In this document: piece after piece, positions 1,491 through 63,276 of the stretch
Position numbering within the stretch: the stretch's first letter is position 1
Layout: each line of letters begins with the position of its first letter
IMG/VR virus record: IMGVR_UViG_3300026549_000895
Span: 175,831-239,830 of that record
Strand: one strand, 5' to 3'
DNA: 64,000 nt
DNA from: a virus
Taxonomy: Duplodnaviria; Caudoviricetes
Translations under genes and position numbers: made by a program
The notes under the pieces: generated by a model
The model's database searches: none
What the model saw: only the letters and a program-made list of their open reading frames with translations
Told to the model about the DNA's origin: nothing

Positions 1491-1529
1491 AAACCCCACC
1501 TTTCGGTGGGGTTTTCTTTTTTCTTTTTT
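1491..1529 (+). terminator. Intrinsic terminator
   Basis: aaaccccacc-tttc-ggtggggttt plus long T tract, between convergent genes. Confidence 0.85.
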
Positions 1530-1626
1530 ATTCGTCTTCTCCCTTACCATTGGAGAGTTCCTGAATCATCTCAGGAGTTTCCTCAGTTTCTTCAATTGTT
1601 GTTTTTTCTTTTTCGTCCATTTTGAT

Positions 1627-4600
1627 TCACCTCGCTTGCGGATTACTCCAAGTTTTGTCTTCGGCATTCGGATCCAACACTCCAACTTTTCCATCAATGA
1701 TAGCAACAGTAGGACGCTCAGATTCAGAGATATTCTTTCTGCCGTGTCGAACAAGATTCTCAAATTCATCTTTTGTGATTAAATTTCGAATAAAGTCTCC
1801 AAACGATTCAGCGAGAAGTGTCACTTTGTAATTATCTTCCTGATCGATGCTTACAACAGGCGGGTCTGCATTAGGTCCTGCTTCTCTATAATCGAGGAAC
1901 ACTTCCAAATGGCCACTTACCGGAGTATTGGCAATGTTAAGATAACCTTCGGGGTATCCCCATTCGGATTGAAGATATTCAGTTCCAAATATACTCGGCT
2001 TATTCTTATCGATACCAAGTATATCGGTTATCTCGATATGATCATTTGACCATCCTGTTTTATACCCACATGGGAATATGCATCTGTTTACCATGCCACC
2101 ATTTTGTTGTTTTATCAGCTCTTTGTATGCTGCTGGTAGTTGAACTCCCAATTCATTCTCAGCGCTTGTTATATCATCATCTGACACTGGGTTTCCGATG
2201 AATTTCTGACCATATGTGGAACTATTGTCCCAGAAATCAGATTGTATAGAAAGCTGTTCGTTATAAATCATATCTCTTCTGTCCATCAAATCATTGAAGT
2301 TGAAAGATTCAGTAATGTTGATATTCTTTCTACCGTGTTGAATAAGATTCTCGAGATGCTTATTCAAATCAGCTGTAGCATTAGGATCAAATACAGGAGA
2401 CTCACCGAGAACGACATCATCAACAGAAGTATCTTCTATTGAATCAAATCCATTGACAAGCCATTCCAAATATCTCTTCTGTGTAGGATCAATGAACTTT
2501 CCACCATCAGCAAGAATCTGCTTTGCAGCCTTAATACCCTGAGAAGCACGCTGATAATCCGTAGGATGAACATCCATGATGAGAGTTCCAATTTCAGAGA
2601 ACAACTTCACGAGCTTGTCAAGGTTAGTAGATAACATTTCATTGTACTTGAACTTTGTTTGATGATCTTCAGATGGTATGAAATGGAATACAACAGGAAG
2701 TTTGTACATTGCAGCGAATGCGTCTGCAAACTGCTCTTCCAAATCTTTACCAGATTTGAACTGTTGTGCCATTTTTCTGAGCATTGCAGGATAAGCTGCA
2801 ATACCAGTCTTGATGAGTGCTATGAATCCGGATACTGCTGCAAAGACACCGAAGGGTCCACTGACACAACCCATAGCAGCACCTGCTGTGAACAATGCGG
2901 TGAAACACCAGCTAACAATAGCGGAAGCAACATGACCAGGTTTTGTCTTATACTGATCTTTCAGTTGAGGAATTACTTCATTGAGTTTGTCGATAAGAAC
3001 AGTAGCATTCTCATCTGCAGTCTTACCAGTAGCACCATTTCCAGAAAACGTCTGAGAATCATCAGCGGTCTTCTTAATTTGTTTCGCCTTTACAAAAGCA
3101 CTCTGAATCTGTTTAGAAGAACACAAAGCGAAGAGTTGTTTCTTAAGAGCAAGCTTCTTCAGCTTATTCATTTTTCCGCCAGTCTCTTCAAGATATGTAA
3201 CATACTTATCGATGAGGATCTTCTTTACCTTCGGAGAATTTACCTGAATAGCACGAGTGATTGTAGCTGAATATGCGCCAACCCATGCCATATTATCCCA
3301 TGCCAACAGAGTTGTTATATTATGGAATATTTCGTGAAGAAGAACAGATGTCAACATCTGACCAAAGTTCTTTTCTTCCTTAGGAGAAGCGAACTGTAAC
3401 AAGCCAGTGGAAATACAAATATAGATAGTAAAACCATTCAGCTTGAAACCAGACTTCTTGGATATTGTGACTTTGTGTCTCGGATTTACCATTCTATCCA
3501 CCATGGTATATCCAACCACATCATCGGTATCTTCGAGAGTAAGTCTTATCCTACAATCGAATTGTTCAGCCAAAGCATCAATACCTTCTTTGAACTTCGG
3601 GTTCTTAATTATCTTCTGATAACTCAGAGCTCCATCTTCTTTTACATCAGACTGTTCAGATCTTACTTCATTAAAGCATTTGATTGCTTTAACAATACCT
3701 GAATTATCAAATCTCATATACTTGATATCTTCCGGCTTGATATTGGATGCTGGAGTAGCTGACTCCTGAACATAGTCATGCTTTTCAACGTTATAACCCA
3801 TCTCTGAGAATGACGCAGTGCCAATATATGGAGTTCCATACAAATCATACAGATACTCAACATATTCATTTGCCTGCTGTTCATCAGGACCAAATGCTTG
3901 AGGTTCAGGATTCTCAGGAGGTTCATTATCAGAACCGAATTCCTGAGGCTTAGGTTCTTCCTGATCATTAATGTATACTTTGCTCGGAACTGCAGCAAAT
4001 GAAGGAGTTTCTTCAGGAGCAACTTCAAACTCTTTGTTCTTCGCAATGCAATCGGTCTGATACTGATCAAGTGCATTATCAACACGAAGTCCTATGTTAT
4101 CCAACAGAGTTGCCATTGCACGAATGATGTTATCTTTGTTACCCTGAACATTTGTGTTCTCGGGAGCAATGATAAAGTCTTCATGAACTTTAATGGACTT
4201 GAGAGAATTATCTCCCATTATATGATCTTCCGGAATATGATAAATATGAGCCAATGACTCAAGAGCACATACAACATCAGGAGCCTTTGCTATAGCTGCT
4301 TCGATAACAGCTTTGGCTTCTTCTGTCTTATTAGGATGCTCCCAAGTACTTTCCAGATCCTTTTCGGTTTCTTTGTTCTCCATATCATCAGATTCAGTCA
4401 CCGTCTTTCGATTCTGAGCCAGGGACTTTTGCCAAGATGATTGATCTTGATTATTTTGTACTATATTATCTGATTCACCAAACGACTTTGAAGGTCCTCC
4501 AACCTTTGGCGACGCATTAAACGAACTTTGATAATGTTCTTCGGGTTGTTTGTTTGGTGCGGGAGGCGGTGAACTCATCGCAGCTTTATCCATACTTGTT

Positions 4601-4800
4601 GTTCTTTTTACATTTGCAGGAACTTCTGTTTCTTCTTGTATACTATTCTGAACAGTATCAACTACAGATGCTCCAAAAGGGGTACCATCTGCACTATTAG
4701 CAATCTTTGCTTTGTTTACAGCATTTTCTAAATTTGATGCATTGGATTTGATGTCAGGTTTAGGAAGCTTATCAGTTTCCAGAGTTATATCGAATCCCAT
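1627..4800 (-). CDS. Putative virion polyprotein: acidic N-region, M48-like Zn metalloprotease with hydrophobic helices, C-terminal SMI1/KNR4 (SUKH) domain
   Basis: HEIFH, EEQFADAFA and DVHPTDYQR motifs; SUKH signature AENELGVQLPAAYKELIKQQNGG...LAESFGDFI; YVQES, ITES and ISES motifs. Confidence 0.75.
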   Translation of the reverse strand: MGFDITLETDKLPKPDIKSNASNLENAVNKAKIANSADGTPFGASVVDTVQNSIQEETEVPANVKRTTSMDKAAMSSPPPAPNKQPEEHYQSSFNASPKVGGPSKSFGESDNIVQNNQDQSSWQKSLAQNRKTVTESDDMENKETEKDLESTWEHPNKTEEAKAVIEAAIAKAPDVVCALESLAHIYHIPEDHIMGDNSLKSIKVHEDFIIAPENTNVQGNKDNIIRAMATLLDNIGLRVDNALDQYQTDCIAKNKEFEVAPEETPSFAAVPSKVYINDQEEPKPQEFGSDNEPPENPEPQAFGPDEQQANEYVEYLYDLYGTPYIGTASFSEMGYNVEKHDYVQESATPASNIKPEDIKYMRFDNSGIVKAIKCFNEVRSEQSDVKEDGALSYQKIIKNPKFKEGIDALAEQFDCRIRLTLEDTDDVVGYTMVDRMVNPRHKVTISKKSGFKLNGFTIYICISTGLLQFASPKEEKNFGQMLTSVLLHEIFHNITTLLAWDNMAWVGAYSATITRAIQVNSPKVKKILIDKYVTYLEETGGKMNKLKKLALKKQLFALCSSKQIQSAFVKAKQIKKTADDSQTFSGNGATGKTADENATVLIDKLNEVIPQLKDQYKTKPGHVASAIVSWCFTALFTAGAAMGCVSGPFGVFAAVSGFIALIKTGIAAYPAMLRKMAQQFKSGKDLEEQFADAFAAMYKLPVVFHFIPSEDHQTKFKYNEMLSTNLDKLVKLFSEIGTLIMDVHPTDYQRASQGIKAAKQILADGGKFIDPTQKRYLEWLVNGFDSIEDTSVDDVVLGESPVFDPNATADLNKHLENLIQHGRKNINITESFNFNDLMDRRDMIYNEQLSIQSDFWDNSSTYGQKFIGNPVSDDDITSAENELGVQLPAAYKELIKQQNGGMVNRCIFPCGYKTGWSNDHIEITDILGIDKNKPSIFGTEYLQSEWGYPEGYLNIANTPVSGHLEVFLDYREAGPNADPPVVSIDQEDNYKVTLLAESFGDFIRNLITKDEFENLVRHGRKNISESERPTVAIIDGKVGVLDPNAEDKTWSNPQAR
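1729..1761. repeat. Direct repeat, copy B (encodes ENLVRHGRKNI)
   Basis: 30/33 identical to 2320-2352. Confidence 0.9.
2320..2352. repeat. Direct repeat, copy A (encodes ENLIQHGRKNI)
   Basis: 30/33 identical to 1729-1761; the two copies bracket the SMI1/KNR4 domain. Confidence 0.9.
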
Positions 4801-4821: not shown

Positions 4822-6021
4822 TTACTTATTTCTGATTTGATTCATTCGATTCATCATGAATGTTGCTATCAAACAAATATGAGCTTTTACAATTTCGCCA
4901 TCATATCCATACTTTCTACGAAGCGGAATAACAACAGGCTTTCCAGGAACAGCTCTATCGACAGCTGTAGGAAATCCTTTTATTCGAGATATAAACTTTG
5001 TTGAGTTTATATCATCTAAAGTATTTCCTTCTTTCACTATAAACACATAAAAGATTCCATCTATTATCATTCCGATATCAGAAATATCTATTGACTGTGC
5101 ATATTTGTAAAGTTCATCTTTCTTAACGGATTTTAATTTGGCAATGCCTTCATAAAGTCCAGAAGTCTTCTTAGCATACAATTCATCTTTTCCGCGAATC
5201 AAACCCACAAGCTTATCTCTCAAATGAATGGTATTTCCGGTCAGAGTGAATTGATCAAAAACATCTCCATCATTACCAACTTCTTTATTTTCCTCAATAT
5301 TCTTATAATACATCTTGGCGAGTTGATACATGTTCTGATTGTATGAATTTCTCAATCTATTTAAGAAATCAACAACAACCTTTGGAGATGGTTTTAACAA
5401 TAATGAATTTCTGTAAAAGTTCCAACAAGTATCAAGAGTAGAATCAATCCAATCTAATAATGAAGCGGATTGAGTGATCTCATACTTATTGGACAAATGT
5501 GAATATGTATATTCCATTGCCTTTGGATTGAAATTCAATTTCTTCTGGAAATACTTAACGAACATTCTTGAATATTGTGTAACTGACAATTGTTCCTTTG
5601 CAGAATCTTTCAGCTTACGATAGCCTATCTGCTCTCCAAATACAATTACCAAAACATGAAGTACCGTAATCGGTACTTCAGTTATGGTTTTAAAGTTATT
5701 TGTTGCATGAACTTCTTTTGTCAGTTGAACAATCTTTTCTTTGAGAGAAGCATTTGTAAAGTCGAATAATGCCAAACAGTTATCAATGTATTTCTTCGGC
5801 CACTTAACAGGTCCTGTTGGATAATGCTTTGATAACATATCGGCATTTTCGGATAAGAAAGTAGCACCGTATTCAATATATGCATTTCGCTTTTCCGTTA
5901 TCTGCATATTTGTATATACAACTTCCATCAGCTCTTCCAACACCGGAGATGTTGAATATGCTTCTGTGATTATATCCAGTGCTTCTTCTTCAGTGAATTC
6001 TTCCTCAAAAAAGTTAAACAT
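4822..6021 (-). CDS. Hypothetical helical protein, possibly virion-packaged
   Basis: 399-aa ORF with SD; short acidic N-terminus ending IITEA. Confidence 0.75.
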   Translation of the reverse strand: MFNFFEEEFTEEEALDIITEAYSTSPVLEELMEVVYTNMQITEKRNAYIEYGATFLSENADMLSKHYPTGPVKWPKKYIDNCLALFDFTNASLKEKIVQLTKEVHATNNFKTITEVPITVLHVLVIVFGEQIGYRKLKDSAKEQLSVTQYSRMFVKYFQKKLNFNPKAMEYTYSHLSNKYEITQSASLLDWIDSTLDTCWNFYRNSLLLKPSPKVVVDFLNRLRNSYNQNMYQLAKMYYKNIEENKEVGNDGDVFDQFTLTGNTIHLRDKLVGLIRGKDELYAKKTSGLYEGIAKLKSVKKDELYKYAQSIDISDIGMIIDGIFYVFIVKEGNTLDDINSTKFISRIKGFPTAVDRAVPGKPVVIPLRRKYGYDGEIVKAHICLIATFMMNRMNQIRNK

Positions 6022-6037
6022 GACAAATCACCTTTTC

Positions 6038-6586
6038 TTACTTATTATGGCGATTCTTCTTGTTCTTCTTCTTTGAATTCTGATTCTCTGTCGCAGTAGG
6101 AGTCTCCTCTACTTCCTCTTCAGATTCGTCCTCTGTAGTATCCTCGGTTTCATCAACCACTTCCTCTTCAACAGCGGGAATAGCAGTCTTAGCTACCTCA
6201 AGTGCTTCATCAAGAAGACCCTCAGCAAGAGTGATGTCATCAACAGAAGCTTCTACAGGAGTTTCCTCTTCCTTGATAACTTCGGTCTCGATACCAGCTG
6301 ATTCTGCCTTCTCAATCAAAGCTTCAACAGGAGCCTTCTCCTCTACCTTCTTCTCAGGAACATCCTTTTTCTTAATAGGAGCAGCTACCTTTACAGAACC
6401 CTGATTAGCGAAGATCTGAGCAATGTTGTTCATTGTGATAATATCAGGAGAATCAGCAAGAGTAACCTTGAGAGTTTTTACCTTAAGAATACGAGCAACC
6501 TGCTGCTGGTCAAGATCAACGTTTCTGACAGGAGCCAGCATTTTCAGTCCAGGGATAAGTCCCTTACCAAGAATATTTACATTCAT
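6038..6586 (-). CDS. Hypothetical protein with acidic tract and basic C-terminal tail
   Basis: 182-aa ORF with SD gaggt, within an operon. Confidence 0.75.
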   Translation of the reverse strand: MNVNILGKGLIPGLKMLAPVRNVDLDQQQVARILKVKTLKVTLADSPDIITMNNIAQIFANQGSVKVAAPIKKKDVPEKKVEEKAPVEALIEKAESAGIETEVIKEEETPVEASVDDITLAEGLLDEALEVAKTAIPAVEEEVVDETEDTTEDESEEEVEETPTATENQNSKKKNKKNRHNK

Positions 6587-6608
6587 TATTAATTACCTCA
6601 TCTTTCAT

Positions 6609-7358
6609 TTAATTTCGATTTTTGTTCATCATTTCACGAATCTTGTTAATTGCATAATAGGATTCTGAAACCAAGTCTGTTTTCAATCCCATAGCAGCAA
6701 AGAACAAATCCGCCTGTAACAGTGTAGGTTTATCAAGAATACCAGTTTTGATATTTTCCAATTTAACGGAACCTTTCTCCGAAATTTCTTCTACCATATT
6801 CTGATATTCATTAACATTATCTCCACGAGCACCAGTAAACTCAGAAAGGATTTCTTTTGCTCCAACTCCGGCAAGCAATTCGTTCTCCATTCCAGTCATA
6901 GTACCGCCCTTTGAATCACCCTTAGCTTCACCTGTCATCTCATCGACATCTGAATCTGACAAGATAAGACCCTGCTTTTTGGTGACCAATTGCTGTGGTC
7001 TTTTTATGTTAAGATAAGCTACCAGTACAGGAGTTCGTGATCTTATTGGGCGGTTCGGGTCACTGGAGATATGTGGCATATAGATGTATTCAAACAATTT
7101 TAGATGTAACAAATCCGCAGCTTTCTCAACATTCTCAAATTTGATCTTTCTATTTTCAGGACCAAATTCTTCAATGTCAATTCTGAGATTACTTTTCTTA
7201 TCTCCAAATAACTTTTGGAAATACTCATCGAACTGTTTGTCATTCATTGTCTGAAACATGTTTCGATATTTCTTTGCATTCACTCCAGATGGATCGATAG
7301 TACTGACAACATCATCAATTAATTTTTCCATCTTTTTTCGTTTGTCAGAAGTTATCAT
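6609..7358 (-). CDS. Phage multisubunit RNA polymerase beta subunit, C-terminal piece (probably virion RNAP)
   Basis: KRPQQLVTKK...MTGEAKGDSKGGTMTGMENELLAGVGAKEILSEFTGARGDN parallels the RpoB C-terminal TQQP..GK...GGQRFGEME...L.E.LT.KSDD region. Confidence 0.75.
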   Translation of the reverse strand: MITSDKRKKMEKLIDDVVSTIDPSGVNAKKYRNMFQTMNDKQFDEYFQKLFGDKKSNLRIDIEEFGPENRKIKFENVEKAADLLHLKLFEYIYMPHISSDPNRPIRSRTPVLVAYLNIKRPQQLVTKKQGLILSDSDVDEMTGEAKGDSKGGTMTGMENELLAGVGAKEILSEFTGARGDNVNEYQNMVEEISEKGSVKLENIKTGILDKPTLLQADLFFAAMGLKTDLVSESYYAINKIREMMNKNRN

Positions 7359-7880: not shown

Positions 7881-8621
7881 TTAAGTTGGATGATTGTTAT
7901 CAGTCTTCACATATTCAGATAAGAATTCATCATATTTCTTGTCAAGAATTTTGATGTAATAGTGTCCCATCTTCCTACATTCATTTTCCATCATAGCATC
8001 TTTTCTTCTCTCAATATCCCTGAGATGTTCCATATAATTATCATTATAACCACCTTGCTTGATTTCAACATGTAAACTCAAAGAAGGAATAAAGAAATCC
8101 GGAATGTAGAGATGTGTTGTACCATCTTTCCACTTGTACCAGAAGTCAGTTGGAGATGGAGCTATGATATCATCCGGATCCCATTCCAATGACTTTAAGA
8201 ACTTCAAGAAATCCTCTTCATAACTACCAATGATTCTGAAGGTATGTTTGTCATCCCATTTAAAGTCTTTGGCATCATGATGATTGTACAACATCTTTCG
8301 TTGCTGATCAGCTTCATTCAGAAGATGTTCTTTGCCGTATACTTTCACCATATTTGATTTGGCTTGTTTTGTATATTCTTCTTTACATTTTTCTGAACAG
8401 ATTCGACCGTATTTCAGTGTCTCTTCATTGAACTTAACATTGTTCTTTTTACAAACAACACACAGTCTTCCAACCGGTTTCTTCACTAATAAAGAATATG
8501 CAAATTCCAAAGGTTCATATTCCTCTGGAACTTGGTCGTTATGCTTTTCTGCTATATGATGACAATACTTTTGTTTGTCATTAAATATTTTTGTACAGAA
8601 CGGACATTTTGTATTACGCAA
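7881..8621 (-). CDS. Zn finger plus TnsA-like PD-(D/E)xK nuclease (T4 gp4 head-completion nuclease-like)
   Basis: CPFC...H...H, CxxC, and YIPDFF...VEIK; TTG start with SD aaaggag. Confidence 0.7.
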   Translation of the reverse strand: MRNTKCPFCTKIFNDKQKYCHHIAEKHNDQVPEEYEPLEFAYSLLVKKPVGRLCVVCKKNNVKFNEETLKYGRICSEKCKEEYTKQAKSNMVKVYGKEHLLNEADQQRKMLYNHHDAKDFKWDDKHTFRIIGSYEEDFLKFLKSLEWDPDDIIAPSPTDFWYKWKDGTTHLYIPDFFIPSLSLHVEIKQGGYNDNYMEHLRDIERRKDAMMENECRKMGHYYIKILDKKYDEFLSEYVKTDNNHPT

Positions 8622-12805: not shown

Positions 12806-13663
12806 ATGCCACTTAAGTCAACTCAAACAAACAAATACGAAACCGCATGTTTCGTACAGGAAGCTGGAGTAGGAGCAAACATGGACAGAGGAACTCTTAA
12901 GATTCTTAAGAATAAATCTGATGGCCGTCCATATTGTAAATTCGATTCCGTACTGTGGTCATTCGCTGGTAAGAATAGAATGGGAAGATTCTATGATATC
13001 AATAATGCAAAGGCATGTATTAATAACGACACCAGAATCCAGAAGTTGAAATCCATCAACAAATGGAGAGGAGAACTGAATCATCCTAATCCGGACATCA
13101 AAGGACAGGAATTCAACTCTATCAGAATGACTATTCCTGAGCAGACCAGAACCTCTCACTTCATAAACAAGGATAGATTCGATGGTCTTCAGTACAAGGC
13201 TGAGATTACTACAAATGGTGCTAATACCGAATGTGGCAATCAGGTAAACTGGGAAATCATTGATAATGGTTCAGTACCGGATTTCTCTGTACGCCTTATG
13301 GGAATTATGATTCCTAATGCTCCTATGGGTAGACCGAATATGAGAGTCAACAGAGTCATTACTTTTGACATGGTTGATTTCCCTTCACACGAAGATGCTG
13401 AAGCAGATATCAAACCTGTTCAGGAATCAGCTGACATTTGTAAGATTATATTCCTTCAGGATCTGGCAAAGTACTGTGTTGAACAGTCTGAGAATCTCAG
13501 ATGTGTATGTGAATCATTTGAAATTACTCCTGAGGAAGTATATGGAATCAGAGATGGTTCTATTGAAATTCATCAACGCGACTCTTCTAAGATTCTGATT
13601 CCTATGGAGAAGCAGATCAGAAGAGAAGCTATCTCAATTATTCTTGGAAAGGGGATTCTGTAA
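12806..13663 (+). CDS. Prohead (capsid maturation) protease, T4 gp21-like
   Basis: GELNHP, FSVR and ITFDMVDFPSH motifs; located upstream of the capsid gene. Confidence 0.85.
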   Translation: MPLKSTQTNKYETACFVQEAGVGANMDRGTLKILKNKSDGRPYCKFDSVLWSFAGKNRMGRFYDINNAKACINNDTRIQKLKSINKWRGELNHPNPDIKGQEFNSIRMTIPEQTRTSHFINKDRFDGLQYKAEITTNGANTECGNQVNWEIIDNGSVPDFSVRLMGIMIPNAPMGRPNMRVNRVITFDMVDFPSHEDAEADIKPVQESADICKIIFLQDLAKYCVEQSENLRCVCESFEITPEEVYGIRDGSIEIHQRDSSKILIPMEKQIRREAISIILGKGIL

Positions 13664-17239: not shown

Positions 17240-19336
17240 ATGGCATACAGCCGTACAAGAAATGGTGCTCCTTCATGGTATCAGGAAACTGCCGAGATAC
17301 TCGACAAGTTCCCGAAGGAAGAGTACGAAGGTCTCAACTCCAATGAATTCGATCAGCGACTCGAAGACACAGGAAAGTTCATCAAGGAACATTATGACAT
17401 CGACATTCGTCAGGACTTCGGACGAATGATAAAGAACAAGCCTCTTATGGCCGACTACAAGCAGCAGTTCCTCAATCCTGTTCTTGATGCATACAGAAAC
17501 TATCCTACTGACAATGCGGACGTTAAGTGTCACCTTGAGCAGGTTGCTAAGGAGCTCGAAGAGGCTTGGGATCAGACTGTTGAAACCGGAGTTGTACAGG
17601 AGGCTTATACAACAGCTCAGTACCTCCCGCTTACTACAATGGACTATCCTGCTCTCGTAAAGCAGTTCATCCGCTTCCTCGGTAAGGATCTTATTCCGAT
17701 TCAGACTGCTAACAACACTACACTTGAGCAGCGTATCTTCACAAAGTACCTTGTAAACAATCAGACTGGTGAGGAGTACGAGGTTCCCCGTATTTACTTC
17801 GAGACTGATCCCGACGGCACTCCTGCTTGGAGAAAGATCTGGAATGCAGGTAAGGGCTGGAGATTCAACAACCATACTGTTCTTCCTGTTGCTACTATTC
17901 AGGCTGCTACAAACAAGCAGTACAGCGTATACAACTGGATCCTCAACGATGCAGGTGAAGCTTCTACTCTTGCAACTGTATCAAAGCTTCCTGAGTTCAG
18001 AGCACGTGTTGCTTATGACTTCAAGATCAAGTATGTTCAGGTTACAACCGGCTCTGGTGCTTCTGCTGCGACTAAGAAGGTTCGTCTCCCTGGCAACGGT
18101 GTTGAGATCGACATTCAGTCTGGTGGTAACTTCATCGGCGCCGTAATTACAGAGAACATGGTTCTTCCTGTAGTTACTGAGTGGATCGCTCCTACAAAGG
18201 AAGCTCCTAACCCTGACAACAGCAAGTTCAATATGCCTACTGGTGAGACCGTTACAGGTATCTCTGATAAGGTATCTGGTTTCATCGACTACACAAAAGG
18301 CAAGCTCACTGTTTCTACTTGTGGCGTAATCACAGGTGTATACATTGAGGGTCACGTATCTAACGAAACTAACACAAGAACAATCGGCTTCCGTGAGTAT
18401 CCTGAAATCAGAAAGTTCACAATTTCTGATGGATGCCGCTTCCAGCTCCCGTTCACTGTAGAGGACTTCGCTGAGGCAAACAAGAACCTCAACTTCAACC
18501 TCTACAATCGTCAGGTTCAGCAGCTCGTTATGAACTCTGAGTTCTTCGAGGATCAGTCTATCCTTGATTACCTCGATGCTAACTTCAAGGAGTACGACGG
18601 TTATGCTTCTGATGCATTCAACCTCGAGAGCTACAACCACACTGAGTTCGCTGATCTCGATCCTACTGCTATTTCTCCTACATTCAGCGGTAACCCGTTC
18701 GAGTACAGAAGCGATGCTATTTACAACGCTACAGATTCTGTAATCTACGAGCTTTGCGACAGAGGCAAGCTTGACAACCTCGGATTCGTTGTATATGCAA
18801 ATCCGAAGGCTTGCAGACTTCTCCAGAAGTATGTTTCTTGGACAACTACTAAGGGAACAGACATCGGCGGCGTTCAGATGAACCATGCATTCGGCATGAT
18901 CAAGGATTCTTCTGTTCCGATCCGTGTTGTATCTTCTAACAGAGTACCTGCTTACATCACTCTTGATGCTACAAAGGTATATGATGATGCTACAGCTGGT
19001 CAGCTTACAAAGGAATACTTCTTCAAGATCGTTGCTTACCCGATGGATAAGCACCACATCACATTCAAGCACCTCCGTTTCGCTCGTCACCTTACTAACT
19101 CTCCTGAGAACGCTGCATATGCAGATGCTCAGAATCCGGGCGGCGCAGCTGTAATGGTTACAGTATCCAGCCAGTATGAGACAATCTCTATTCAGGGTAT
19201 CCAGGGTCGTGTTATCTGCAAGAACACTAAGCTCGTTCCTGATACTCTTGCTGGTGTGTATACACCTACTAACAACAATCAGCAGAGCAGCGGCGGCCAG
19301 AACCAGGGTACCGACACAGGTAACGGTGGTAACTAA
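17240..19336 (+). CDS. Major capsid protein precursor
   Basis: 698 aa; strong codon bias; position after protease; ~121-aa N-region ending VVQE-A. Confidence 0.85.
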   Translation: MAYSRTRNGAPSWYQETAEILDKFPKEEYEGLNSNEFDQRLEDTGKFIKEHYDIDIRQDFGRMIKNKPLMADYKQQFLNPVLDAYRNYPTDNADVKCHLEQVAKELEEAWDQTVETGVVQEAYTTAQYLPLTTMDYPALVKQFIRFLGKDLIPIQTANNTTLEQRIFTKYLVNNQTGEEYEVPRIYFETDPDGTPAWRKIWNAGKGWRFNNHTVLPVATIQAATNKQYSVYNWILNDAGEASTLATVSKLPEFRARVAYDFKIKYVQVTTGSGASAATKKVRLPGNGVEIDIQSGGNFIGAVITENMVLPVVTEWIAPTKEAPNPDNSKFNMPTGETVTGISDKVSGFIDYTKGKLTVSTCGVITGVYIEGHVSNETNTRTIGFREYPEIRKFTISDGCRFQLPFTVEDFAEANKNLNFNLYNRQVQQLVMNSEFFEDQSILDYLDANFKEYDGYASDAFNLESYNHTEFADLDPTAISPTFSGNPFEYRSDAIYNATDSVIYELCDRGKLDNLGFVVYANPKACRLLQKYVSWTTTKGTDIGGVQMNHAFGMIKDSSVPIRVVSSNRVPAYITLDATKVYDDATAGQLTKEYFFKIVAYPMDKHHITFKHLRFARHLTNSPENAAYADAQNPGGAAVMVTVSSQYETISIQGIQGRVICKNTKLVPDTLAGVYTPTNNNQQSSGGQNQGTDTGNGGN

Positions 19337-57811: not shown

Positions 57812-59785
57812 ATGAGTGAAATCATAAACAATGAAAATCCCATGAATGTTGAAAGTGAGACTATGAATTCCGCAAAAGAATTTAATCCTGCTACGGATGA
57901 TGCTCTCATGAAACTCGTGAATCAGCATAAGAATAAAATTGCCGCACAGGGCGAGGAAGCTGGTTCAGCAAAAATGATTCGTAAGGAGATACCTCTTGTG
58001 GACGATGATAACAAGATAATCTCCGTTGATAGCGACAAGGCTATTACAAATGAAAAGCTTCCTGTATCAAAGCCAACTCCGGTCGACGAAGATGAGTTTG
58101 GTGATAATGATCTTCAGAAAGAAATGGAAGCACAGGATGCTCGTGAACGACATGAGCGTGAAGAAGCTATCAAGGCAGAACGTGAAAGAAAAGCTGCTGA
58201 AGAAGCTAAGAAAAAAGCAAATACATATGCCTATAAAGATCCTGTTGAAATGGGAGAAGCTGTTGGTTTCCAGGCAGATAAAATTGCAATGATCAACAGA
58301 ATGACCCAGATGGTACTTAAGAAGTACTTCATCAAGGAAGGTGAAATTCCGGAAACATATCCTGCTGAGGGAGCTGGTAATCATCTTACACGTCTTCAGT
58401 GTCTCGGTGAACTCACAGCTCTTTATGAATCAAACGGTGCTTACATAACACCTGAGTTCGAACAGATTATCCTTCACAACTGGCAGATGAATAACGGTCA
58501 GTTTGCGGATGAATGGATAAAGGAAAATACATCTGTTGATGCAGAAGGAAACATTGTTCTCGATAAGTATAGCAATCCTTCTTCTGATAATGGTGATGAT
58601 AAGGGAACTTCAGACGGCGGTTCTTATCGTGACAAAGCACCTATGGAGATTAACATCTTCACTCCCGAAGATCTTACTTCATTAACTGTTAACATTGATG
58701 ATGAAGTTCTTGGTGAAATGAACTTCACAAACAAAGTCAATGTTAATGTTATCAAGGTTTCTAATGAAGAGATTTTCGCTGGTAAGAAAATTATCGAAAA
58801 CTCTGACAAACCTGGTATCATTCGTGACTTCACATCTACAATGTCAGATGTTCAGTTCACATTACCTGCTTCTGGATTCCGTGCAACAATGACAGGTATC
58901 AACTGGTTCGATGCTCTTGGTCTTGCTGATGTTGCAGGTAAGACTGAACAGGATAAGGCAATCGAACAGTGGTCAATGTTCTATAAGCATATGAAGAATG
59001 TTTCCATCGGCGAATTCACAGATTTCGAAGACTTCCTTAAGAAGACCAAGTATGTTGATGCATCTGTTATAATGTGGGCTCTGCTTACTGCTACAACCGG
59101 TGATGAGGAAGAGTTTGGCTATACATGTACAAATGAGAAATGTGAAAAGACATTTGCAATCAAATACAATCCTCACTCAGTAGCTCATATCAATGAAAGC
59201 AATATAACGGACGAATACTTCCGTGCTTCAAAGGCATCACCTGGTCAAGAAGCTCTTGATGTATTCCATGAAATGGGAGGACATCACCTGTATTATACAC
59301 TTCCTGATTCAGGAGCAATTCTTGAGCTCAGTCAGCCTTCTGCATATGATATGATTCAGAAGAAGCTCAGAACTCAGGACAAACTTCAGAAACAGCTCAA
59401 GGCTGAATATGAGGAAGTAGAGGACAAGGATTCATATCAGGGTGCAAGACTTCAGTTCCTTATGGGAATCAACCAGTTCATTGATTCTATCATAATTCCT
59501 GGACCTACGGAAAATGATCCGAAATATAAGTATACAACATGGGATGACATTGTCACGATACTTACAAACCTTTCATGGAAAGATACAAACATGCTTTCTC
59601 CTCTCATGACTGCTCTTGCAAAGAGATTTGCATCACCGATCGATATGTATGTTGAAGATGTTACTTGCCCGCATTGTGGTAAACACTTGCAGAGACTGTA
59701 CATCACTAACATACAATCACAATTACTTTTCAACGCATCTCGTCGGTATCAGAATACCGAGATAAACTTGATCGAGACTCTGTAG
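57812..59785 (+). CDS. Baseplate hub / tail assembly chaperone-like protein (T4 gp26-like C-terminal half)
   Basis: FTLPASG, YTCTNEKC, YTLPDSG and VTCPHCG motifs. Confidence 0.55.
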   Translation: MSEIINNENPMNVESETMNSAKEFNPATDDALMKLVNQHKNKIAAQGEEAGSAKMIRKEIPLVDDDNKIISVDSDKAITNEKLPVSKPTPVDEDEFGDNDLQKEMEAQDARERHEREEAIKAERERKAAEEAKKKANTYAYKDPVEMGEAVGFQADKIAMINRMTQMVLKKYFIKEGEIPETYPAEGAGNHLTRLQCLGELTALYESNGAYITPEFEQIILHNWQMNNGQFADEWIKENTSVDAEGNIVLDKYSNPSSDNGDDKGTSDGGSYRDKAPMEINIFTPEDLTSLTVNIDDEVLGEMNFTNKVNVNVIKVSNEEIFAGKKIIENSDKPGIIRDFTSTMSDVQFTLPASGFRATMTGINWFDALGLADVAGKTEQDKAIEQWSMFYKHMKNVSIGEFTDFEDFLKKTKYVDASVIMWALLTATTGDEEEFGYTCTNEKCEKTFAIKYNPHSVAHINESNITDEYFRASKASPGQEALDVFHEMGGHHLYYTLPDSGAILELSQPSAYDMIQKKLRTQDKLQKQLKAEYEEVEDKDSYQGARLQFLMGINQFIDSIIIPGPTENDPKYKYTTWDDIVTILTNLSWKDTNMLSPLMTALAKRFASPIDMYVEDVTCPHCGKHLQRLYITNIQSQLLFNASRRYQNTEINLIETL

Positions 59786-60045
59786 AAATATACAGAATCG
59801 CACGATTACTTGGAAAAGTAATTCCGTTCGAAGTTCTGATGAAACTACCTCGCCCAGTAGTGTATCGTCTCCGAGATTTGCGAGTTGAAGAGTTACAGGC
59901 GACAAATAAGCAACAAGAACAATATCAGAAAAAAATAATGAATAACATGAATAATGGAGGACCATCACAAAATAATCAGAATGTCCCATCTTTCTTACCA
60001 AGTCTCGGCGCGGAAGAGTTAGAGGAAGAATTGGGGCTTGACTAA
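59710..60045 (+). CDS. Overlapping -1 frame ORF, possibly reached by frameshift (first ATG at 59839)
   Basis: Frame open from 59710; no SD at ATG 59839. Confidence 0.5.
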   Translation, partial: HTITITFQRISSVSEYRDKLDRDSVEIYRIARLLGKVIPFEVLMKLPRPVVYRLRDLRVEELQATNKQQEQYQKKIMNNMNNGGPSQNNQNVPSFLPSLGAEELEEELGLD

Positions 60046-60047
60046 AA

Positions 60048-60170
60048 ATGGAAGTGAGATGGTTTCGCGTGTTAGATCAATTCATAAAAGTATTCTTAGA
60101 GAATCATGGTATTGAATATGTGTGTGCACATTTCTTGGAACTGCGAGAACAATACTATGCTTCTCGATAA
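60048..60170 (+). CDS. 40-aa small ORF
   Basis: ATG 2 nt after the previous stop; fills the gap to 60203. Confidence 0.4.
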   Translation: MEVRWFRVLDQFIKVFLENHGIEYVCAHFLELREQYYASR

Positions 60171-60202
60171 CAGATATAAAAGCTTAAGGAGGATTTATTA
60201 AT

Positions 60203-61033
60203 ATGGGAATGTCAGCTAAACTAATTAACCTTAAGGCATCAACAAAGAAAGATGTTGATAAATACAAATATCACATTGCTTCAATGACGTTGCTGTTCGA
60301 AATCATTAAAATGATAAATGGACACCACAAGTATATTGACAATAATACTTTCAAGAGCAAGTATCTCGTTTCTACTCGTGATGTAGAAACGGAGTCTTAT
60401 CCTCTGGATCTCTTCATTCCTGATTTGGAAAATGAAAGAACTTTCTTGGTCAACAGAGACACTCCTGAATATCAGGAAATGATCAAGAGAGTAACCGAGG
60501 ATGATTTCAAGATTGCTTTTGAGGATGAGCCTACCAATGAAGCATTCATGAAGTACAAGGAAGATTGTACAATCTTTCCCGACATCCAGGATGATGTGTT
60601 CATTTACATGATAATCTCAAAGTATCTGGATAAACTCGACCAGATGCGTTTGATATCATTCTCTATAACTCGAGAACTTATAGAATGGACTGTAAACAAT
60701 ATCACTCTTGATGATTGGAAAGGTTTCGTTAGTAAGACTCCTTCCGACAAGAAATATGCTAAATATGGAATCGATTATTTCTTCGATCCTGAGTTGGCTC
60801 GTATTCAGGCATTCTATAATACCGAAGAGCAGTGTGGTGATGCATTATGTGACACCAATCTGCTTCTCAGAAGAACTGCAGCCGCTGTTAATAGTTCTGC
60901 TGAATCATTTATGTTGCTTGCTATGTATCAGATTCTTTCATTCGCAATCCCGGATATTATGGCAAAGGAGAACATCGAAGAATCTCCTTGCAGAGACTAT
61001 GTCGTGAATGTCCTGTCAAAGATAATGGACTAA
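60203..61033 (+). CDS. Hypothetical protein
   Basis: SD aaggagg; 276 aa. Confidence 0.75.
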   Translation: MGMSAKLINLKASTKKDVDKYKYHIASMTLLFEIIKMINGHHKYIDNNTFKSKYLVSTRDVETESYPLDLFIPDLENERTFLVNRDTPEYQEMIKRVTEDDFKIAFEDEPTNEAFMKYKEDCTIFPDIQDDVFIYMIISKYLDKLDQMRLISFSITRELIEWTVNNITLDDWKGFVSKTPSDKKYAKYGIDYFFDPELARIQAFYNTEEQCGDALCDTNLLLRRTAAAVNSSAESFMLLAMYQILSFAIPDIMAKENIEESPCRDYVVNVLSKIMD

Positions 61034-61042
61034 GAAAAGGAA

Positions 61043-61067
61043 TATCAGGCGGCTAAGCCGCCTGATA
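61043..61067. terminator. Hairpin terminator
   Basis: tatcaggcggc-taa-gccgcctgata followed by ctttt. Confidence 0.7.
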
Positions 61068-61104
61068 CTTTTCATGTAATTATTATAATGAAAGGAGAAT
61101 TCAT

Positions 61105-63276
61105 GTGTCTAACATAATGAAAATAGATAATAAGTATTATGATTTTGGGACAAAGAACAAATCTTTTCTTCAGACAGCTAAAGAATTAAAGATTCTTGGA
61201 ATAAAACATTGGTACTTCATGCTGGAAGTAAAGCATCCAGAACTTGGTGTTCAAGACTTAAACCCTCGATCAGATACTTTGACTGCTGAACAGCAAGGTT
61301 CTATTATTTTGGAATGTAAACAAAATATTTGGTATTACTTCCGAGAGGTATTTGCTGTTCCTGCAAGAGGTGCTCCGATGCCTTTGGAATTCTATTTACA
61401 TCGAGGAAGCTGCGCAATGATTTGGTGTTATCAACATAACATCGGTTTCATGGCTGCTTTTGTTCGTCAGGTTTATAAAACAACAACGGTATTGGGATTA
61501 TGTACATATGCTTTCTTATTTGATTTAAAGAACTCGACAATCCCATTCATGCATATCGATGGTGGTAAAGCGAAATCGAATGCAAAGGAATTCAGAGAAT
61601 ATGTAATGACATTACCACCATACATGAATCCATTCTATGAGATGAAGAAACCTCCGGGAATTGATTCTATCATTTATAAAGAACACAAAACATCAATAAA
61701 GATAATTGCTTCTGCTCAGAATGCTGTTGATGCAGAAGATAAACTTCGTGGTGATACTCCGTATGTAGCATTCATTGACGAGTGGGAGTTCATTGAACAT
61801 ATTGATTCAACAATGTCTGGTGCCGCTCCTGCTATTCACTCTGGTCGTGAAATCACAAAGAAGCTTGGTACTGGTAGAAACTGTATCATGATGATATCCA
61901 CACCTGGTAACTTGGAAACTACAACGGGTAAAGCTGCACAACGTATGATTGATGCAACTCAAAGATGGACTGAGCAATATTATGATATGACAGAGAATGA
62001 TATCGAATGTTCTTTCCAACTGGTATCAGAAGATGGTTCTATGGAAGCATTGACAATGGTTTATATGGAATACTTCCATTGGCAGCTTCGTAAAGGTGAA
62101 GAGTATCTCATCGAGAACTACAATGAATTTGCAAAGACCGGCAGATTTGCCGAGTATCGTAGAGGATGTCTTCTTGAAAGATTCCGTGGTTCTGATTCAG
62201 CTATCTTCAGACAGGAAGATATTGATTACATTGTTCAACACGAAAGACAACCAGAATATGATATCTTCATTCTTAAGAAGTTCCATCTGTATGTTTATAA
62301 GCATGAAGTATATGATGTTGATTTGACTTCAAATACTCCTTACTTCGATATCAATATTCCTTATTTGATAGGAATGGATATCTCATATGGTGGTGGTTCG
62401 GATAATACTGCAATCATTGTAGTACATCCTTACACTCTTGAGATTGTTGCTGAGTTATCATCTCCATACATCGGTAACAATGACCTCACTGAGTTATTCT
62501 TGGCTTTGTGTAAACTCATTCCACATGGTGTATTCTGTCCAGAAGCAAACTCTCCTGGAAAGGTACTGGTTGATACTATTCAAACTTATGGTCTTGAATA
62601 TCGTGTTTATCACGATCCTCAACTTGACCTTTCTAAGAACGTTGTTCAGAAAACAGATTCACCTCAAGTTGCAATGCAGAAGAAAGCTCACAACAAACAA
62701 TACATCGGTGTTACTGTTAATGAGAAGAACAGAAAAGAAATGTTCCAGATGCTCATAGCAACAGTAAAGGATTACCGTACACTCGTCACATCACATTATC
62801 TCATAAAGGATATACAGAATCTCGTTATTAAGAAAGACAAGATTCAGGCAGATACAGGTGAACATGATGACATGGTAATGGCATATAACCACGTGCTATA
62901 TGTATTGAACTTTGGTCATGACTTAACCAGATTTGGTATCGATAAAACCAAGTGCACATACAACACAGCTCGTCAAGCTGTTCATGATTATATTGAACAG
63001 AAAGCCGAAGAGGTTGTTGATAATATTCATCTGTATGACCACAGAACATATCAAGACCAAGTAAGAGATGATATGTTATCGAACGATCATTCCTCAATGG
63101 GATTTGGTCCTGATGGATATGATGAGTATGGTTATAAGTATTCGGATTATCACGAATATGGAACGCATCGTGATGAGTTAGCTGGTAATACTCCATATGG
63201 ACACAAAACGAATACCAATCCATATCCTTCATTATCAGCAGGCGTTTTGAAAATGTTTGTTGATATGAATGACTAA
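61105..63276 (+). CDS. terL: Terminase large subunit
   Basis: RQVYKTT (Walker A variant), AFIDE, ISTPG, GMDISYG...DNTA, HDDMVMA; GTG start with SD. Confidence 0.9.
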   Translation: MSNIMKIDNKYYDFGTKNKSFLQTAKELKILGIKHWYFMLEVKHPELGVQDLNPRSDTLTAEQQGSIILECKQNIWYYFREVFAVPARGAPMPLEFYLHRGSCAMIWCYQHNIGFMAAFVRQVYKTTTVLGLCTYAFLFDLKNSTIPFMHIDGGKAKSNAKEFREYVMTLPPYMNPFYEMKKPPGIDSIIYKEHKTSIKIIASAQNAVDAEDKLRGDTPYVAFIDEWEFIEHIDSTMSGAAPAIHSGREITKKLGTGRNCIMMISTPGNLETTTGKAAQRMIDATQRWTEQYYDMTENDIECSFQLVSEDGSMEALTMVYMEYFHWQLRKGEEYLIENYNEFAKTGRFAEYRRGCLLERFRGSDSAIFRQEDIDYIVQHERQPEYDIFILKKFHLYVYKHEVYDVDLTSNTPYFDINIPYLIGMDISYGGGSDNTAIIVVHPYTLEIVAELSSPYIGNNDLTELFLALCKLIPHGVFCPEANSPGKVLVDTIQTYGLEYRVYHDPQLDLSKNVVQKTDSPQVAMQKKAHNKQYIGVTVNEKNRKEMFQMLIATVKDYRTLVTSHYLIKDIQNLVIKKDKIQADTGEHDDMVMAYNHVLYVLNFGHDLTRFGIDKTKCTYNTARQAVHDYIEQKAEEVVDNIHLYDHRTYQDQVRDDMLSNDHSSMGFGPDGYDEYGYKYSDYHEYGTHRDELAGNTPYGHKTNTNPYPSLSAGVLKMFVDMND

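Follow-up and report, generated by a model that had tools for sequence, protein, structure and literature searches.

The internal proteins of phage T4 (IPI*, IPII, IPIII and Alt) are packaged via a capsid-targeting sequence and trimmed by the prohead protease gp21. The immunity domains of polymorphic toxins have, to our knowledge, so far been known as bacterial self-protection. Proteins of the SMI1/KNR4 (SUKH) family are immunity proteins of such toxin systems, nuclease toxins included (PMC3113570). In phage SPN3US the S80-family protease has the motif A-X-E, with serine preferred at P1' (PMC10052503). In polyvalent proteins a metallopeptidase of zincin type and exchangeable conflict domains are parts of one polypeptide, and transfer together with the DNA has been predicted for them (PMC5512222); a conserved, uncharacterised zincin of group-1 jumbo phages has been suggested to act in maturation cleavages (Iyer et al., PMC7824862). 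Here we describe a 1057-amino acid (aa) protein, the carrier, that is encoded in the last 64 kb (the window, to which coordinates refer unless marked otherwise) of the 239,830-bp IMG/VR virus record IMGVR_UViG_3300026549_000895 (the whole record is denoted G000). The carrier joins a predicted HtpX/M48-like zincin to a SUKH domain that lies in a C-terminal slot with exchangeable content. The C-terminal position of the cargo, the SUKH domain as cargo and the HtpX-like carrier distinguish it from T4 internal proteins, S80-processed ejection proteins and polyvalent proteins.

Like the T4 internal proteins, the SUKH domain would be a pre-made counter-defence protein that is placed in the prohead, trimmed after glutamate and injected with the DNA, and the motif, here known from sequence alone, has an aliphatic residue at P3 and glutamate at P1. 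Unlike them, the immunity-type cargo is C-terminal, behind an 845-aa enzyme-like carrier and not behind a short N-terminal targeting peptide. The head and ejection proteins of phiKZ, 201phi2-1 and SPN3US, with their S80 proteases (gp175 and gp245), provide a second parallel: this phage encodes an S80 protease, a motif with Glu at P1 and Ser or Ala at P1' is enriched in its head-module proteins and in the protease, and the protease has a site ~77 residues from its C-terminus, comparable to the 64-residue C-terminal propeptide of SPN3US gp245 (PMC10052503). However, the motif here is (V/I)-Q-E and not A/S/G-X-E, and C-terminal release at sites with Thr or Ser at P2 would be needed, whereas almost all known cuts remove N-terminal propeptides (PMC10052503). 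The likeness to polyvalent proteins lies in the apparent presence of several conflict-type domains, with a zincin and SUKH in one phage polypeptide and a slot that varies among relatives, and in a further 996-aa multidomain protein of this phage, the modules of which are joined by x-E↓S/G motifs (here and below the arrow marks the candidate cut). Unlike in polyvalent proteins, the peptidase is HtpX/M48-like with a membrane hairpin, not SprT/ArdC-like, and there is a single cargo slot. SUKH has 0 occurrences in the polyvalent-protein paper (PMC5512222) and is not mentioned in the jumbo-phage paper PMC7824862, and our literature search found nothing relevant on jumbo phages with SUKH/KNR4 or on an anti-defence role of such proteins. 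SUKH immunity proteins such as B. subtilis YobK (2prv) and RhsPI (8bd1) share the Pfam family and fold (PMC3113570); the domain described here, unlike these, is not encoded by a gene of its own behind that of a toxin but is fused in frame to a phage protein. Finally, the AR9 'zincin protease' and the group-1 jumbo-phage zincin (PMC7824862) resemble the carrier in fold, phage group and head-module setting, whereas AR9-like Goe21 and phiR1-37 show no detectable sequence similarity to it, and the carrier is larger and has a C-terminal slot.

The SUKH domain is bracketed by a 33-nucleotide (nt) direct repeat, the copies of which (2320-2352 and 1729-1761) are identical at 30 of 33 positions and start 591 nt, or 197 codons, apart and in frame. 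They encode ENLIQHGRKNI (aa 817-827, then N-I-T-E-S) and ENLVRHGRKNI (aa 1014-1024, then S-E-S), respectively, and no match of this grade was obtained in 100 shuffles of the window. The first copy belongs to a boundary motif, D-L-D-x-H-L..LI....[LIV][TV]E, that was present in 73 of the 75 homologues found (P0001 is the carrier of this phage), down to 25% identity. Most homologues end 3-46 aa past this motif, and the stretch has a predicted local distance difference test (pLDDT) score <50 in our model of the tail. DNA alignment with two related SUKH-less loci (L017 and L018) placed the insertion, Y846-N1023, just before the second ITES, where it separates two Ile codons. The tails of orthologues that lack SUKH have the sequence HGRKNINITES-FNFNDLMDKREMI-ITESERPTVAIIDGK...WSNP, with two I-T-E-S motifs 19 residues apart; in this phage a mutation of the stop codon that usually follows WSNP extends the protein by three residues, QAR. 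Because the SUKH-less orthologues already hold both I-T-E-S motifs, the second x-E-S is older than the insertion. Repeat copy 2 consists of the last 10 cassette codons and the next Ile codon (aa 1024, nt 1729-1731), and this duplication of ENL..HGRKN(I) at the insert end gives the second site the same 11-residue upstream context as the first.

The first-pass annotation of the window had described the repeat and a SUKH-like domain between its copies, both of which we recovered, and had proposed that the domain was added by duplicating a C-terminal cleavage cassette. Of such a cassette only the ENL..HGRKNI segment is duplicated, at the insert end; the second x-E-S pre-existed the insertion. Recombination between the 33-nt repeats was also considered as the source of the SUKH-less forms and was rejected, as its product (HGRKNI followed by SESERP, with no SUKH) occurs in 0 of 31 close orthologues. 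The ENL..HGRKNI motif was found nowhere else in the 240-kb record in any of the six frames; it is confined to the carrier gene, which rules it out as a portable tag on other phage proteins.

Table 1 Coordinates of the carrier gene, its parts and associated features in the window
Feature	Position	Strand	Evidence and remarks
Entire carrier gene (1057 aa), made up of a variable N-terminal region, the zincin core, the boundary motif, the SUKH cassette and a short tail	1627-4800	-	Open reading frame (ORF) list and translation
N-terminal region, aa 1-347	3760-4800	-	Length varies among orthologues; ends at V-Q-E-S (aa 344-347, nt 3760-3771)
Predicted HtpX/M48-like zincin core, aa 348-832	2305-3759	-	HEIFH 3322-3336; hydrophobic helix pair ~2782-2937; EEQFADAFA 2713-2739; HPTDYQR 2548-2568
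Family-wide C-terminal boundary motif DLNKHLENLIQHGRKNINITE-S, aa 811-832	2305-2370	-	Repeat copy 1 at 2320-2352; candidate site 1, I-T-E↓S, at 2305-2316
Spacer FNFNDLMDRRDMI, aa 833-845	2266-2304	-	Common to SUKH-less orthologues; tail alignment; DNA alignment with L017 and L018
Inserted cassette, 178 codons, aa 846-1023	1732-2265	-	Pfam core 1786-2190; clean in-frame gap versus L017 and L018
Candidate site 2, I-S-E↓S, aa 1024-1027	1720-1731	-	Equals second I-T-E-S of SUKH-less tails; pLDDT 54-62 in tail model
Conserved 31-aa tail (SERPTVAIIDGK...WSNPQAR)	1630-1722	-	Tail and DNA alignments
Block upstream of the carrier on the same strand: 399-aa protein, acidic 182-aa protein, 249-aa RNA polymerase (RNAP) beta fragment	4822-7358	-	
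Prohead protease, phiKZ gp175 / S80 family	12806-13663	+	Pfam Peptidase_S80 E 1.5e-8; PHROG head maturation protease
Canonical V-Q-E↓(A/S) motifs in the protease, aa 17-20 and 205-208	12854-12865, 13418-13429	+	Same two sites in the G001 orthologue
Canonical motif in the major capsid protein (MCP), aa 119-122	17594-17605		

Profile searches and structure prediction identify the inserted domain as a bona fide SUKH-1 domain. SMI1_KNR4 (PF09346) matched aa 871-1005 (nt 1786-2190) at E 4.6e-20, with 72.9 bits against a cutoff of 25.4 and over profile positions 1-124 of 125, and SUKH_6 matched the same residues at E 4.5e-19, above its cutoff. An AlphaFold model of the tail, built with 90 sequences, reached pLDDT >90 over ~aa 851-1020, and Foldseek aligned it with probability 1.00 to B. 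subtilis YobK (2prv), Listeria 2icg, B. fragilis 3d5p, Knr4, FBXO3 and Syd, the RhsPI immunity protein (8bd1) also being among the best matches. The nearest SUKH relatives include multi-immunity fusion proteins with Imm68, Imm33 and Imm51 domains.

A word-based search for short SUKH relatives returned one fragment only. An exhaustive HMMER search found 1023 SUKH relatives. The closest non-orthologous domains (51-56% identity) lie near the N-terminus of four proteins of 880-1280 aa (P0078, P0079, P0080 and P0082), the C-terminal 440 aa of which are homologous to the protein encoded at G000 63525-65237. In these second carriers SUKH is followed by acidic linkers and I/V/T-Q-E↓G/S motifs, and in P0082 such motifs stand on both sides. 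Since the same subtype is fused to a different phage protein, the role of SUKH would be independent of the zincin, and the domain, judging from these fusions, behaves as cargo riding on large phage proteins. The G000 homologue itself (L076:7526-9238) has 570 aa, a very acidic N-terminus and a Coat_F-like segment, its homologues P0078-P0082 carry the same SUKH subtype, and Protein Atlas returned unnamed viral clusters only.

Close orthologues of the carrier occur both with and without SUKH, and the SUKH-less ones include cores that are 95-99% identical; P0008 and P0009, for example, have nearly identical cores and differ in SUKH status. The SUKH-bearing members fall into three end types: one with the repeat and tail (P0001, P0002, P0008, P0014 and P0016), one ending in ...DEFENLRTNSKSTV (P0005 and P0013) and one ending in ...DEFEEQRKRNNGGETI (P0010). 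On the core tree SUKH presence is scattered, and at least four changes are forced for the SUKH_a type. Relative to P0001, the SUKH domain of P0016 is 98.1% identical and its core 73.5%, whereas the SUKH domain of P0005 is 91.2% identical and its core 97.3%. These discordant identities show that the cassette moves between phage lineages by recombination, presumably through its almost invariant flanks, in keeping with the earlier suggestion of a modular cargo. An IMG/VR locus search with P0001 alone gave no related loci and with an alignment as query distant relatives only; a single metagenome scan gave two close loci, both SUKH-less.

Among relatives, the slot behind the boundary motif holds nothing (a short tail), SUKH, a Zn ribbon or, in some distant members, a helical module of 266-307 aa. 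The Zn ribbon is found in the carrier of G001, a complete relative, behind L-T-E↓S ... I-C-E↓S, and the same type stands behind Y-C-E↓S in the 996-aa multidomain protein of this phage. The latter (G000 58908-61898; L076:2909-5899) contains DUF6582, transglutaminase-like, Zn-ribbon, Gln-amidase-like (papain fold toxin 1) and GNAT modules with the junctions I-T-E↓S, Y-C-E↓S, I-N-E↓S, V-Q-E↓S, I-Q-E↓G and I-Q-E↓E, and looks like a polyvalent head or ejection polyprotein. The carrier gene has a second length-polymorphic part, the low-complexity N-terminal region, which is ~140-180 aa longer in P0003, P0006, P0015 and P0027 despite cores that are 96-98% identical.

The core of the carrier is predicted from its motifs and its model to be an HtpX/M48-like zincin with a hydrophobic hairpin. 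Across 37 diverse homologues HEIFHN, EE...D, Y, P and the P and R of HP....R (including P417 and R422) are invariant, and a hydrophobic helix pair (aa ~622-673) lies between HExxH and the EE..AD element, as in HtpX/M48. The set of M48 hallmarks is present: HExxH, a downstream Glu ligand in an E..AD context, HP....R, and two helices between the first two. None of the 37 members matched a Pfam family over the core at E <= 0.05, and sequence searches with the carrier found no match in the PDB, among cultured phages or in the phiR1-37 and Goe21 records. The AlphaFold model of the core (pLDDT 79.6) was searched against BFVD, where the AR9 'zincin protease' (A0A172JHV9) was the best match (E 2e-7), followed by phage proteins named Peptidase M48 or BepA-like (E 1e-6 to 2e-5); a 'virion structural protein' of each of PhiPA3, Miami, Eowyn and RP12 was matched as well. 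Matches in the PDB were weak (BepA, E 0.08; ZMPSTE24, Z 6.3 over 176 residues), and helical-hairpin matches dominated a wide structure search (VIA) with a 506-residue model.

Relatives encode the carrier and the S80 protease on one strand, with the carrier either directly upstream of the protease or 2-5 kb away, and any gap contains only the RNAP fragment and the 399-aa gene (G001, L009, L016, L029, L030, L039, L045, L055 and L060 overall). In this phage the carrier block is inverted and 8 kb from the protease. G001 (142217-146190; L016) has two tandem carrier paralogues directly upstream of the prohead protease, the first of which ends in the Zn ribbon in the slot.

A likely recognition motif of this protease emerged from the proteome. 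In G000 [IV]QE[SAG] occurs 20 times against 3.4 +/- 2.0 expected from shuffles, an excess of ~6-fold that 0 of 200 shuffles reached, while the control [IV]QD[SAG] is not enriched (3 versus 3.9 expected). Position scans singled out Q at P2 (z 8.9), V (z 8.6) and I (z 4.1) at P3, and S (z 7.5) and A (z 6.6) at P1'. The over-represented form in this phage and its relative is (V/I/F)-Q-E↓(S/A/G), with z ~9, and in G001 the motif occurs 22 times against 4.6 expected (~5-fold, z 9.0). A broad motif, [LIVM][TSAV]E[SA], was tried and discarded: it is not enriched genome-wide (37 versus 32 expected), only Q at P2 being enriched. Among the proteins that bear the motif are the MCP, the protease (twice), the carrier (V-Q-E-S, aa 344-347) and a 983-aa head protein. 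MCP orthologues of 61-63% identity share V/I-Q-E-A/S near residue 120, at the border between the poorly conserved N-terminus and the conserved body, and Phi-Q-E-[SA] is found at the place equivalent to carrier aa 344-347 in 55 of the 75 homologues. (V/I)-Q-E↓(S/A) is thus probably the cleavage motif of the S80 prohead protease of this clade. With this inferred recognition motif at a conserved position the carrier is a plausible substrate of the head protease, and hence a plausible head protein; head-module synteny in relatives and fold relatives annotated as virion structural proteins point the same way. The first-pass annotation had placed the carrier in the virion, and these observations make that assignment plausible.

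In the reading that we favour, and consider about as likely to be right as wrong, the carrier is a zincin packaged in the head, and its exchangeable C-terminal cargo, SUKH, is delivered with the DNA and blocks a toxin-type effector. The protein would then have four parts: a variable N-terminal region ending at V-Q-E↓S, the zincin core, the boundary motif ...HGRKNINITE↓S, and a slot that may be empty or filled. The prohead would take it up and the S80 protease would trim it. The SUKH module would enter the cell with the DNA, whether attached to the carrier or freed from it at the I-T-E↓S and I-S-E↓S linkers, and, before phage gene expression, would inactivate by binding a toxin-type effector, nuclease-like by family precedent, that belongs to the host or to a rival element. 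We infer the packaging, the cleavage (especially at sites with Thr or Ser at P2), the delivery and the target; a role as a nuclease-toxin antidote in particular is suggested by what is known of the SUKH family (PMC3113570). A more specific version appears to us possible but tentative: in this lineage of rumen/gut jumbo phages the C-terminal slot on a head-packaged, membrane-inserting zincin would be a recombination-exchangeable cargo port. The head protease or the zincin would cut SUKH out while still inside the capsid, and the freed module, injected along with the DNA, would disarm toxin-domain defence effectors before transcription. The carrier would then be part of an antitoxin system that is delivered by the virion and has a mechanism of its own for exchanging cassettes.

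Several observations weigh against delivery of a freed SUKH antidote. The flanking sites I-T-E-S and I-S-E-S agree with the over-represented motif at P3, P1 and P1' only and have Thr or Ser, not Gln, at P2; [IV]-T-E-[SAG] (6 versus 7.2 expected) and [IV]-S-E-[SAG] (10 versus 8.2 expected) are not enriched in G000, and neither Thr nor Ser at P2 is enriched in G001. The family-wide C-terminal site never has Gln at P2 in the 73 homologues where it is readable, and its constraint therefore differs from that of the canonical sites. I-N-I-T (aa 827-830) forms part of a β-strand in the core model, so that the boundary motif could be structural. In SPN3US 13 of 14 mapped S80-protease cuts remove N-terminal propeptides; the exception is the protease, which is shortened at its C-terminus (PMC10052503). 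No toxin gene was found adjacent to the carrier and no toxin domain in its flanks, where a linked toxin would be expected for a SUKH immunity protein, and searches among cultured phages gave no sequence-level homologue of the carrier. On the other side, the tail model has each candidate site in a linker of low confidence that borders the folded SUKH core, a position that fits accessibility. The two sites had been put forward as predicted maturation sites; they are not canonical, because the over-represented motif has Gln at P2. With Thr and Ser at P2 not enriched in the proteome, release of SUKH by the head protease at these sites is plausible but unproven.

The non-canonical flanking sites agree better with a rather unlikely but serious alternative, in which SUKH is never released and instead steers the membrane-inserting M48-like peptidase to a host protein or regulates it. 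Cleavage at aa 344-347, the sole canonical site, would yield a 710-aa product in which zincin and SUKH are still joined, the SUKH fold matches FBXO3, where it is part of an E3 ligase, and Syd, which binds SecY, and metallopeptidase domains acting as effectors on host proteins are allowed for in the polyvalent-protein paper (PMC5512222). Such an adaptor is harder to reconcile with the same SUKH subtype on an unrelated protein of related phages, beside canonical sites, and with cores of 95-99% identity that lack SUKH altogether; the 11-residue context duplicated upstream of the second site, together with flexible linkers at either end of SUKH, also fits excision better than a fixed two-domain enzyme.

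It is improbable that nothing is packaged or injected and that the carrier is an intracellular, membrane-anchored peptidase whose SUKH domain shields the infected cell from toxins of neighbouring bacteria or resident elements. The hydrophobic hairpin and HtpX-like topology would suit an enzyme of the cytoplasmic membrane, and a low-coverage virion mass spectrometry study of the related Staphylococcus phage DC4 did not include its annotated metallopeptidase (PMC10638138). However, the carrier has a conserved canonical head-protease motif, several relatives encode it beside the prohead protease and in the same direction, the annotation of its fold relatives is that of virion structural proteins, and its operon partner is homologous to a phiR1-37 protein recorded as structural. 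Similarly improbable, finally, is self-processing, in which the carrier's own zincin cuts [LIV]-T-E, freeing the module in the capsid or after ejection, or docks it in its cleft as a pseudo-substrate: the C-terminal motif accompanies the zincin core in 73 of 75 homologues, prefers T or V and never Q at P2 unlike the proteome-wide motif, and has I-N-I-T in a strand of the core model, and autoproteolytic release by metallopeptidase domains has been proposed for polyvalent proteins (PMC5512222) and maturation cleavages suggested for the uncharacterised group-1 jumbo-phage zincin (PMC7824862), but the second site, I-S-E↓S, lies ~195 residues from the core and the carrier family offers no biochemical precedent.

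If SUKH is packaged and delivered with the DNA, phages would recruit the immunity domains of polymorphic toxins as pre-made, injected counter-defence cargo. This would also point to toxin-domain effectors as a major obstacle early in infection within the dense communities of rumen and gut. The analysis provides testable outputs in the form of a putative S80 motif, (V/I)-Q-E↓(S/A), a defined, exchanged cargo slot and natural SUKH-plus and SUKH-minus pairs on nearly identical carriers. The slot could also serve to load foreign proteins into the heads of giant phages.

The source of the window is an uncultured 240-kb jumbo phage of rumen/gut type, which its gene content places in the AR9/phiKZ group. 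This placement is based on the MCP, which has distant similarity to the MCPs of AR9-group Staphylococcus jumbo phages, on the S80 prohead protease and on the RNAP fragment. The last is the 249-aa neighbour in the carrier block (6609-7358), an RNAP beta fragment homologous to phiR1-37 g203, which is a 'phage structural protein' in that record. An HNH-type endonuclease gene (7881-8621, minus strand; phrog_15137, E 2e-43), probably a homing endonuclease, lies within the block of virion-RNAP and structural genes. The carrier is also neighboured by a 30-aa ORF and a coiled-coil ORF, the latter on the other strand. The 30-aa ORF (MDEKEKTT..., 1528-1620, minus strand) is acidic and conserved, starts 7 nt past the carrier stop, has its own GAGG ribosome-binding site and is kept in L017 and L018.

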